Shown: positions 40,632-52,760 of the stretch, one piece after another | Layout: every line of letters starts with the position of its first letter | Position numbering within the stretch: position 1 is the stretch's first letter | NCBI GenBank assembly: GCA_964187785.1 | Contig: OZ076409.1 | Location: 50,470,001 to 50,534,000, forward strand | From: Amphiscolops sp. MND2022 | Lineage: Eukaryota | Length of the DNA stretch: 64,000 nucleotides | Direction: 5' to 3' | Notes under the pieces: model-generated | Told to the model about the DNA's origin: nothing | Seen by the model: the letters and a program-made list of their open reading frames with translations, nothing else | The model's database searches: none | Translations under genes and position numbers: made by a program

Positions 40632-40715
40632 CAGAGCGTCGCGAAAAACGTCAGTAAAACGTCAGGAACACAAGGTATAGAGTATTCACACATAACAATG
40701 AAAAATAACTGATAA

Positions 40716-41117
40716 ATGAATCTCATTCAAAGAATTTGTTGAAAAATACAGATTAAAAAATGAAGCAACTTCTAATGTAAAAATAAAAGAAATCCTAGAC
40801 ATACTCAAATTAAACTCACCCGGGATATACATGAGAGTTGATAAATTTACCACTACTAGTGGTATTGTTAACTTACATCCAACTAAAGGAACACATTGGG
40901 TTATGTTTGTTAACGAGTTTTATTTTGATTCATATGGATGTCCACCTCCAACTAATATACTTAATCACATTAAAAAAGGTATTCAGAATATCAAATTCAG
41001 ACCGACGACAGTTATTGTGCAGCGTATTGTTTGTATGTGTTATATCTCACAAATATAATTGGCTTCAAAAATGCAGTACTAAATTTGTACTATCAAACTT
41101 TCAAACTTAATAAATGA
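40716..41117 (+). pseudogene. Adenain-like (adenoviral C5 family) cysteine maturation protease, 2 frameshifts
   Basis: GTHWV...YFDSYGCPPP, then after a frameshift at about 40980 YQIQTDDSYCAAYCLYVL: the His/Asp/Gln/Cys catalytic set. Confidence 0.9.
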
Positions 41118-42418
41118 AGAAAACTAATACTTATTCAGCTCAATATAAAATAATACATCCACGTAAAAATAATTCGAATCCACAAAGCTTCGAGCAGAGC
41201 TCCACACCGAATCCACAAACATATAATAAAAAAGAACCTCTTCTTTTAAGTATTGCAAAATCTAATCAAGAAATTGTTGAAAATACTCATTCTAAATTAC
41301 AAGAAACTCTAGAATTTAAAATGACTAAACAAAAAGAATCTTTCTCATTTGATGTTCCACTGGAATTACCTGAAAAATGGATGATGGGAGTAACAAGTTT
41401 AGAAGTATACAATACAGTTTATAATATCACCAACAACAATAACAAACTAGAGATTGTTCTGAATACTCAACAACTCAAAGAACTTAACCTTGACAGTGAA
41501 TTATTAGTGTTTGTTGAAGATTTATACAAATCCTATTTTGTTAAACCTTATAAGTATAATGAATTTGTAGAAAAGGATATTAAACTTATAACTAATAGTT
41601 ATTCCAAAAAGAAGAAACTTACTAGAGTAGATTTTACCTATTTAACGAAGATAATTGAATCACCTAATCAAATATACAAAGAACGTCTCTATCAAGAAAA
41701 AAAGCAAGAAAATATAAACCAAGAAAAAGAAAATCAAGAAAGAAAAATTCAAGCATACAAAGACCACCTAAAACATGCAAAAATAAATTGGGAGGAAATA
41801 AAGTGGCAGGAAATAATTTGGGAGCAAACAACCCAAGAAAATCAAGAGGATGAAGTAAACCAAATAAATCAAATAAATTTACCCCCCTTTGAAATTATTG
41901 AAAACGATTTCTTTGGAATACAACTAACCCCAGGAGTTTATGAATTAGTTGCTATACATAATGCTATTGAACAAAAAATTAATGAAAGTGATTATGATTT
42001 CAAAAATGACATCCAAGCAGATACAATATCAATGAAATTAGTTTTAACAACCTCAAACCCTATTCATTTTAACTCCAGATTTAACATTGTTTTGGGATTT
42101 ACAAACAAGGATTACCAAGCAGGAACTCACACTTCAGAAAAACCAGTTATGATAACAACCACAGACAAAGTTCACCTGAAGTGCGACTGTGTAGATGGTT
42201 CAATTGTTAATGGTATTCGAGAACAAAGTTTATTTTCATTTAATTTAAGCGCACCTCCCGGATATAAAATTATAAAAGAACCAACCACTGTTTTGTATAA
42301 AAAGATAAACAAAACACGACTGGACATCATCCAATTTTTCCTTGAGGATAGCAATCATAACCCTGTTGATTTCAACGGGGAGACATTAACGTTTACAATT
42401 CAAATTATCAAGATTTAA
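41114..42418 (+). CDS. Minor capsid protein (penton), 434 aa, intact
   Basis: C-terminal VHLKCDCVDGSIVNG...LFSFNLSAPPGYKIIKEP..VLYKKI...FLEDSNHNPVDFNGETLTFTIQI is typical of Polinton penton; gene sits after the protease. Confidence 0.8.
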   Translation: MKKTNTYSAQYKIIHPRKNNSNPQSFEQSSTPNPQTYNKKEPLLLSIAKSNQEIVENTHSKLQETLEFKMTKQKESFSFDVPLELPEKWMMGVTSLEVYNTVYNITNNNNKLEIVLNTQQLKELNLDSELLVFVEDLYKSYFVKPYKYNEFVEKDIKLITNSYSKKKKLTRVDFTYLTKIIESPNQIYKERLYQEKKQENINQEKENQERKIQAYKDHLKHAKINWEEIKWQEIIWEQTTQENQEDEVNQINQINLPPFEIIENDFFGIQLTPGVYELVAIHNAIEQKINESDYDFKNDIQADTISMKLVLTTSNPIHFNSRFNIVLGFTNKDYQAGTHTSEKPVMITTTDKVHLKCDCVDGSIVNGIREQSLFSFNLSAPPGYKIIKEPTTVLYKKINKTRLDIIQFFLEDSNHNPVDFNGETLTFTIQIIKI

Positions 42419-51700: not shown

Positions 51701-52644
51701 CTTGGGAATGTCTTTACCTTTCATGGGGAATTCCAATCCTTCAGGTTGAGTTTATTGAAGTGTATTGAATAATTTGATGTTCTACTTTTATTGTCCTCAA
51801 CGGGATATAAATACACCAAGATAGACCGTAGAAAACAATATTGATCATCACTTTTTATATTTATAATTGATTTGTTATTCTTATATTTTTCTGGCAATTC
51901 AATGTATGAAGAAGCTTGAATATCATCGACTTTATTTATTTCTAATATAACATTCACAAAACCGTTTAACACAAAACCTGATCCTTCTAATTGTTCATCA
52001 TCTAATTTCTGCATTAATGTGTTGTGTAAAGCTGCGTGAATTGAATCTTGTGTGTGATTATAATTAAAATCTGATTTAACCCATTTGTGAAATACAACTT
52101 CTTCTGCGAAGCTCTGTCCATTAACTATTTTTGAAAACTTACCTAAATAACTCAATTGATATTTATATCGGGGAAAGTAGTTTTTATCTAGTAGTTCATT
52201 TATGTGATGTTTGAGATCTTGTGTGTCAGTTGGATTTACTTTCAGTTTAATGTATGTTTTTTCATTCACAATTATTTCTACTCCATGCAGCGAAGCTGTA
52301 TTACCGAAGGTGTTTTGTGTGCTTCGTGTATCTTGACTGTTTTGCGTACCTTCGCAATAGCTTTCGCGGTTGTTTTGACTTCTTAACGTGTGGATTTCAT
52401 TTTGGAAATGTCTTGTTTTATCACTAATGTATTTACCACAATCTTCACACCAAACTTGCTGCTGTTTAGTTTTGTTCTTGTGTTGGTCAGAATTTAAATT
52501 ATTTAACTTATCTGATAGGGGCATAAATTTATTGCATTTTTTACAATAATTTTGATTTAATTTTTCTAAATGTTTCACTGATTTCAGATGATCAGACTTG
52601 AAAGCTTTTTTATAATCAGATTTACAGATGCTACAGTTCTCCAT
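48789..52644 (-). pseudogene. Protein-primed family B DNA polymerase with N-terminal zinc fingers and an endonuclease VII-like insert
   Basis: Fragments give CSIC..H..H, DDQYCFL, VRDHDHLTGKYRGAAHNRCN, YPYEY, YIDANILYGWAM (motif A), KLMNNAFFGK (B), YMDTDS (C) and FDDKR; multiple frameshifts. Confidence 0.95.
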
Positions 52645-52760
52645 TTATTTATAATAAATTTACGAAATTAATAGCAGTATTTTTTTCAATAGTATATTTT
52701 CAATTAATGAGTGTTAATCTTTATTTTGTTAACTTTTTATGTTAAAATTGAATAAATTAA

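Follow-up and report, generated by a model that had tools for sequence, protein, structure and literature searches.

The window analyzed here is a 64,000-nucleotide stretch of the Amphiscolops sp. MND2022 genome (contig OZ076409.1, positions 50,470,001 to 50,534,000, forward strand) that contains a decayed Polinton (Maverick/adintovirus) of 14,873 bp at window positions 39997 to 54869. The element begins and ends with AGTAGT...ACTACT, and its terminal inverted repeats (TIRs) are about 640 nt each and 93% complementary (left, 39997 to 40631; partner, 54235 to 54869). A 6-bp target-site duplication, CCCGGA, lies at 39991 to 39996 (plus strand) and 54870 to 54875. AGT-repeat ends, TIRs, and a 6-bp duplication are among the features by which Polintons/Mavericks are recognized, and the core genes for an rve integrase, an A32-like ATPase, and a double jelly-roll capsid of family PF21738 are present. 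The element is structurally an ordinary Polinton. Stops or frameshifts disrupt most of the genes, and this copy is too broken to produce particles of its own. The subject of this report is the sequence TAAATG, which marks the gene starts of the element and matches the core of the vaccinia late promoter.

Gene starts were judged by mapping the 12 genes of unbroken copies onto the window, where 9 of the 12 starts retain an intact TAAATG. On the plus strand, the motif opens the maturation protease-like gene (motif, 40713 to 40718; gene, 40716 to 41117, frameshifted), a small open reading frame (ORF; MKKxN) within the 3′ end of the protease frame (motif, 41111 to 41116), the pVI/cupiennin-like gene (42425 to 42430; gene, 42428 to 42871), ORF4 (42895 to 42900; 42898 to about 43936, broken), the rve integrase gene (46470 to 46475; 46473 to about 47368, broken), and the PF21738 double jelly-roll major capsid gene (47401 to 47406; 47404 to about 48661, broken). 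On the minus strand, it opens the zinc-finger ATPase gene (44979 to 44984; 44981 to about 43926, broken), the Pox_A32-like ATPase-2 gene (46447 to 46452), which starts 23 nt from the divergent integrase ATG, and the PolB gene (52642 to 52647; 52644 to about 48800, broken). Two minus-strand starts have decayed: that of a predicted membrane-protein gene (53388; 53386 to 53391, now AAAATG), where 11 of 16 sister copies read TAAATG, and that of a helical protein of unassigned function (54191; 54189 to 54194), where 12 of 15 do. The small ORF at 41114 is a separate gene of 66 to 76 amino acids that a deletion has fused to the penton frame (41114 to 42418). The same deletion removed the penton's own TAATAAATG start, which is still visible in 9 of 13 older sister copies.

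An earlier note on this DNA had listed ten element sites at which TAA directly precedes ATG, and all ten read that way where it placed them. Nine are genuine gene starts. The tenth, 46249 (motif, 46247 to 46252, minus strand), had been proposed as the likely ATPase-2 start, but its TAAATG lies out of frame within the coding sequence of that gene (CCT AAA TGG). The true ATPase-2 start is 46449, a real start that had been assigned to a small ORF; the protein is 405 to 419 amino acids long in unbroken copies. The ATG at 41114, given to the penton, is a TAAATG gene start that belongs to the small ORF. TAAATG pinpoints gene starts, and three labels were corrected through it.

The integrase of an unbroken copy matches rve (E = 7.5e-11) and its packaging ATPase matches Pox_A32 (E = 4e-8). 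PolB of the window family (family A) had no PF03175 match in the Pfam scan and is recognized as a PolB by its motifs; in unbroken copies it contains an endonuclease VII insert. The protease and penton have no Pfam, PHROG, or PDB sequence match. Their labels, the former also given in the earlier note, rest on Polinton gene order and on motifs that we take to be characteristic, and the pVI/cupiennin-like label of the 42428 to 42871 gene is likewise presumptive. Both the protease and penton genes are kept in a distant family of the same genome, family C (39% and 35% identity), and ORF4 has homologues in other PF21738 Polintons. The capsid is of the PF21738 type, without a match to the virophage-type (Lavidaviridae) capsid family. 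The 11 family A and 20 family C proteins scanned have no match to RNA polymerase families, nor to TBP, TFIIB, or other transcription-factor families. Zinc-finger domains and several genes of unassigned function are present. The predicted folds of two uncharacterized element proteins were poor (pLDDT 49 and 46), the sole fold search gave no match at E ≤ 0.001, and the Atlas gave no usable match; these results speak neither for nor against a transcription factor encoded by the element. The 1.07-Gb host assembly, whose introns, histone arrays, and Ras family suggest an animal, yielded 1346 capsid candidates at first look, and most of the 126 that were scored have open frames. A young group of 19 loci has a median identity of 99.0% (171 pairs). 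The spread of this Polinton family in the host genome is wide and recent.

TAAAT is nearly constant in the young copies. TAAATG stands at all 12 starts of an unbroken copy (L259+L260) compared with 25 of 486 other ATGs (5%), and other AAATG sequences in that copy are preceded by T in 25 of 77 cases. Ten young copies form two subfamilies, A and B, with about 70 to 88% DNA identity and different gene order. They have TAAATG at 104 of 114 starts (116 pattern rows minus two spurious pattern matches) and TAAAT within 12 nt at 113 of 114, and 3 of these 113 read TAAATT. The distance between the divergent starts of ATPase-2 and the integrase is 23 nt in the window, 23 to 34 nt in subfamily A, and 14 nt in two subfamily B copies. 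Older sister copies keep TAA at 154 of 185 starts and ATG at 163 of 185, and the non-start site at 46249 keeps TAA in 20 of 26. These copies are no proof by themselves because TAA and ATG decay at a similar pace, and conservation among them was dropped as evidence.

A third family in the same genome, family C, was found with a distant capsid query. Its shared proteins are 31 to 47% identical to those of family A (capsid, 42%), there is almost no DNA similarity, the flanks differ, the gene order is another one, and all genes lie on one strand. Family C loci (L442+L426+L427 at G000:C13, about 40.589 to 40.606 Mb; L392-L441) are 15 to 17.6 kb long. In a copy whose terminal repeats are identical, 20 of 20 genes counted on the coding strand have TAAAT; one nested and three antisense ORFs were left out of the count. 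Fifteen of these starts are TAAATG and five are TAAATA with the ATG 2, 3, or 6 nt downstream, so the base that follows TAAAT is always G or A. Other sense ATGs of this copy pass the same TAAAT test in 29 of 396 cases.

Host starts differ from those of the elements. TAA precedes the ATG at 1 of 39 starts in a small, hand-picked sample of HSP70, histone, tubulin, and Ras genes in which some Ras starts may be internal (Fisher p = 8e-11), and at 1 of 40 with histone H4 added, compared with 12 of 12 in the unbroken copy. T occupies −3 at 5 of 39 host starts, A does so in all 11 tubulin starts, and AA at −2/−1 is frequent. The contrast with host starts drawn in the earlier note was borne out, and its observation as a whole proved stronger than stated there. 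Its two examples of host starts, CAATC-ATG and CCAAA-ATG, occur in the window and are putative as gene starts. The sole host start with the motif belongs to a Rac-like gene (L375, TTATAAATG).

Polintons outside this genome were represented by 82 loci with distant PF21738 capsids, 50 of which had a capsid frame long enough for a quick tree. One clade, unrelated to the window family, has TAAATG at 14 of 17 capsid starts and at many other genes. These metagenomic elements (a subset of L177-L237) look endogenous and decayed, and they use (A/T)ATAAATG at the capsid (14 of 17 rows) as well as at the ATPase, protease, and further genes. The motif is absent from Polintons that are just as AT-rich (L182, 0 of 14 ORFs; L242, 0 of 14; L187, 0 of 11), which use other AT words. 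Because TAAATG is nearly confined to one outside clade, it is lineage-specific and arose more than once or was lost often.

The conserved unit is, from these comparisons of starts, TAAAT itself rather than a Kozak context, a stop codon, or a poly(A) signal. The bases that precede TAAAT vary, which sets it apart from AATAAA, and the TAA is out of frame when the ATG is offset by 2 nt, which sets it apart from an insulating stop. A T-rich block ends about 6 nt upstream. The T count at −11 to −7 in three copies is 3.3, 3.7, and 2.7 of 5 compared with 1.9, 2.0, and 1.4 at other TAAAT sites (p = 6e-4, 7e-5, and 1e-5), a comparison partly confounded by that of intergenic with coding DNA. Four other known signals showed no enrichment: TATA precedes 1 of 12 family A and 3 of 20 family C starts (background, 15 to 16%), and among the 32 element genes the mimivirus early motif was found at 0, the Cafeteria roenbergensis virus late motif TCTA at 3, and 3′ hairpins at 0. 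Baculovirus TAAG precedes 0 of 12 starts in family A and is mildly raised in family C at 8 of 20 (background, 17%), the latter being one of several tests.

The arrangement resembles the late promoter of vaccinia, which has a T-containing core, a 5- to 7-bp spacer, and TAAAT(G/A) (PMC5294985). Initiation within this element and a slippage-made 5′ poly(A) are described in a salmon gill poxvirus paper (PMC4542343), and yeast linear plasmids combine a TAAAN initiator, slippage that yields poly(A) heads, and a plasmid-encoded polymerase (PMC6211774). The likeness to vaccinia and other chordopoxviruses (PMC5294985, PMC4542343) consists of a five-base core fused to the ATG, G or A as the next base, and a T-rich block about 6 nt upstream. 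In contrast to vaccinia, the signal here lies in an integrating 15-kb element without an RNA polymerase gene and stands at all genes, including those of replication. A pox-type promoter or initiator role of TAAAT is well supported by the sequence because TAAAT is kept across proteins that are 31 to 47% identical and survives ATG shifts of 2 to 6 nt, and because the next base is G or A in family C, a T-rich block lies upstream, and divergent starts stand 14 to 34 nt apart. This much of the earlier note's poxvirus-type late promoter stands, and the helper virus that it coupled to the promoter is inferred.

TAAAT is very probably a selected transcription-start element. It stands at nearly all element starts and is rare at host starts; therefore, these Polintons likely borrow the RNA polymerase of a large DNA virus. 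We give a little better than an even chance to its being read by a helper's polymerase of the nucleocytoplasmic large DNA virus (NCLDV) type, and, with the same modest confidence, propose that every gene carries a separate initiator on which the pox-type RNA polymerase of a helper virus acts. That the helper is specifically poxvirus-like is a tentative suggestion. The multi-subunit polymerase of a co-infecting large DNA virus would read the TAAAT initiator, and, by analogy with vaccinia, transcripts would start within AAA and gain a short poly(A) head by slippage. With this head in place of the T at −3, the mRNA would lack the poor Kozak base, which could then be tolerated in the DNA. Transcription would proceed gene by gene with almost no leader, and this would make 12 to 20 intronless tandem genes and back-to-back starts 14 to 34 nt apart possible. 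On the model of mavirus, a helper infection would give rise to particles that enter other cells, where the integrase would insert the genome; the integrated copies would then remain silent until the helper came back. Mavirus and Sputnik share start signals with their helpers (bioRxiv 10.1101/2022.07.28.501842; 10.1101/2025.10.09.676808), and elements of the mavpol2 capsid clade occur in entomopoxvirus occlusion bodies (PMC11296320). If the polymerase is borrowed from a helper, such Polintons would be animal counterparts of virophages. The wider proposal, that animal Polintons of this type, integrated at high copy number, act as endogenous virophages to a pox-like virus of this animal, that the start signal is a lineage-specific "helper code" predicting the waking virus, and that the elements may blunt that virus, is rather doubtful as a whole, and protection of the host taken by itself is quite unlikely.

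Several observations, besides the confounding of the T-rich block, weigh against a pox-like helper. TAAAT is short and AT-rich and is also found in three ranavirus polymerase promoters (delayed-early) and, as TAAAN, in yeast plasmids; it therefore does not single out poxviruses. Three subfamily B starts with a displaced ATG, one of which reads TAAATT, may be mutated former ATGs, and only 1 of 33 capsid starts outside the TAAATG clade of foreign Polintons has the motif. The search of the host assembly for NCLDV, RNA polymerase, and VLTF genes that the earlier note had suggested was run and found no helper gene: VLTF3, NCLDV capsid, and D13 (PF04947, PF04451, and PF03340) gave no match in searches made without a positive control, and the RNA polymerase second subunit is found at only three loci, intron-split, with no fourth. 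An infecting virus need not be in the host assembly. For the recent, wide expansion, a helper would have to infect germline-forming cells often. Beta adintovirus transcripts have been reported from cavefish tissues without mention of a helper, and in insect cells infected with a baculovirus, adintovirus DNA co-purified with the particles (PMC8502044). The 80 contigs reached through a family C endonuclease are mostly phage-like and have TAAATG at 44 of 1369 ORFs, so none is a helper candidate.

The main rival is that TAAAT is the element's own initiator for nuclear host RNA polymerase II (Pol II), recognized through host TBP or an element factor, and that it converged on the poxvirus word with no helper involved. 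We consider this unlikely, while noting that it would sit well with the large recent expansion in the host genome, the cavefish transcripts, and the zinc-finger domains and unassigned genes of the element. Against it, none of the scanned proteins resembles TBP, TFIIB, or another transcription factor, and TATA is not enriched upstream. Leaderless mRNA is poorly handled by scanning ribosomes, and a Pol II start at the ATG would yield just such an mRNA. Moreover, AATAAA occurs on the coding strands 38 times in 13.1 kb, 46 times in 10.9 kb, and 45 times in 16.0 kb compared with 9 times in 36.8 kb of host frames, a difference that is mostly base composition. Depletion of poly(A) signals was uninformative as a test, host frames not being depleted either.

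It is improbable that TAAAT acts in translation, as an A-rich, Kozak-like context with a preceding stop that serves stop-start reinitiation or insulates starts on longer Pol II transcripts. AA at −2/−1 is common at host starts, other Polintons have A-rich starts such as TATAAAAATG, and in family C 3 of 20 TAAs are the stop of the upstream gene and 2 more starts overlap a stop as TAATG. In family A, however, 0 of 12 TAAs are the upstream gene's stop, and the motif is also found at first genes, at divergent genes, and at genes after gaps of 100 to 400 nt. The TAA is out of frame where TAAAT and ATG are offset by 2 nt, few host starts have T at −3, and the upstream T-rich block is left without a role.

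Less probable still is a pox-like polymerase that comes from a linear plasmid or virus-like element in the host cytoplasm, in the way that pGKL2 serves pGKL1 in yeast, and not from a lytic giant virus. Yeast virus-like elements do use a TAAAN initiator, slippage, and a plasmid-encoded polymerase (PMC6211774). A persistent helper of this kind would account for frequent copying. The assembly contains no extra RNA polymerase second subunit, though a divergent or unassembled one could escape. We know of no such cytoplasmic polymerase-bearing element in animals.

It is very improbable that the motif is the preceding gene's poly(A) signal (AATAAA and then TG) or a side effect of tight packing at high AT content, and family C goes most of the way to refuting this. 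Many family A starts do read AATAAATG, and 8 of 12 and 10 of 20 stops have A(A/T)TAAA in the 120 nt that follow. But the bases before TAAAT vary (CATAAATG, GTAAATG, CCTAAATG, and TTTAAATG), only 5 of 12 and 7 of 20 stops have a signal that lacks the following T, and the motif is missing in equally AT-rich Polintons and in the phage-like contigs (44 of 1369 ORFs).

TAAAT at Polinton starts is a solid, previously unreported cis-signal, and a helper virus that reads it is likely but unproven. The elements resemble PF21738-capsid Polintons/Mavericks/adintoviruses (PMC8502044, PMC11296320) in their TIRs, AGT-repeat ends, 6-bp duplication, PolB, rve integrase, A32-like ATPase, double jelly-roll capsid, and length of 14 to 18 kb, and the capsid module is probably of the Beta or "mavpol2" type. 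They are unlike these relatives in the fixed TAAAT start at every gene, the two ATPases of family A, and the mobile endonuclease genes and two PolB types of family C. Mavirus, Sputnik, and the polinton-like virus (PLV) Gezel-14T (bioRxiv 10.1101/2022.07.28.501842; 10.1101/2025.10.09.676808) are likewise small double jelly-roll viruses with a uniform start signal that matches a class of large DNA virus, and mavirus integrates; their hosts are protists and their helpers known relatives of Mimiviridae, whereas here the helper is only inferred. Entomopoxvirus-associated PLVs (Barth et al. 2024, PMC11296320) share an animal host and a proposed poxvirus helper, and two fall in the mavpol2 capsid clade. 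In contrast, the evidence for them is co-purification and gene exchange without promoter analysis, AHEV_PLV1 and Ca_PLV1 have no known integrase, and no start contexts for these PLVs were found in that report's supplement. The yeast plasmids pGKL1/2 (PMC6211774) are protein-primed linear replicons whose TAAAN initiator overlaps the start region, but they have their own polymerase and an upstream conserved sequence and lack a capsid and integrase.

Virophage-like behavior of animal Polintons has been proposed before (PMC8097293; also PMC11296320). The word "promoter" is absent from the main text of PMC8502044, PMC11296320, and PMC10748475, and no report of TAAAT at Polinton starts or of promoter-level virophage evidence was found in the literature surveyed, mostly at title and abstract level and with subscription papers outside it. 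A fixed pox-late signal at every gene makes the virophage idea for animal Polintons simply testable, and it bears on the mode of transcription of these elements and on the rarity with which their particles are observed. If the helper exists, the signal points to an undiscovered large DNA virus of this animal. Polintons could also be grouped according to their likely helper with TAAAT as a sequence criterion, and a helper code, if real, would comprise TAAAT here and TATA- or TAAAA-type words in other clades. Other PF21738 Polintons (L162-L242, for example, L182, L169, L242, and L238) have, by eye and without statistics, their own fixed words before most ATGs, either TATA(A)AAAATG or, in L238, TATATAATG. 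This recalls the late initiator TATA of African swine fever virus, whose late genes use TATA (PMC7163114).

Capsid relatives were sought in viral contigs: three single queries found none there, an alignment found one locus, and the phage set had none. A Polinton fragment in a bacterial metagenome-assembled genome record (L161) has three starts without TAAAT and is probably a mis-binned eukaryotic contig. Family C has branches with the same capsid module, one with a family A-like PolB (47% identical) and another with a PF03175-type PolB. Endonuclease VII/HNH-like mobile genes are variably present in family C (L426, 3028 to 3714 and 8651 to 9352; L427, 2404 to 2967), each with its own TAAAT start, and one such gene lies within the terminal repeat of a copy (L436, 5808 to 6257).

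The window holds a second, older Polinton copy with an internal deletion (20424 to 23740, plus strand) that retains the left end, protease, small ORF, penton, pVI-like gene, and 3′ end of the capsid gene. TAAATG is present at 20810 to 20815 and 21563 to 21568, as the earlier note had reported; the positions it gave mark the T, the ATGs are at 20813 and 21566, and the latter opens the small ORF rather than the penton. In the main element, several ATAATAAATG repeats 3′ of the capsid stop (48660 to 48800) point antisense into the PolB end, and imperfect ATCACTA/TAGTGAT repeats that take up about 290 nt between the ATPase genes (44985 to 45270) are retained in young copies. Tandem histone arrays elsewhere in the host genome (L131-L160) are very large, with a unit of about 3.63 kb and at least 150 H3 matches. 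Host palindromes, perfect or nearly so, with 38- to 68-nt arms lie at 39456 to 39531, 39531 to 39702, and 10118 to 10193 of the window and are probably small foldback elements.

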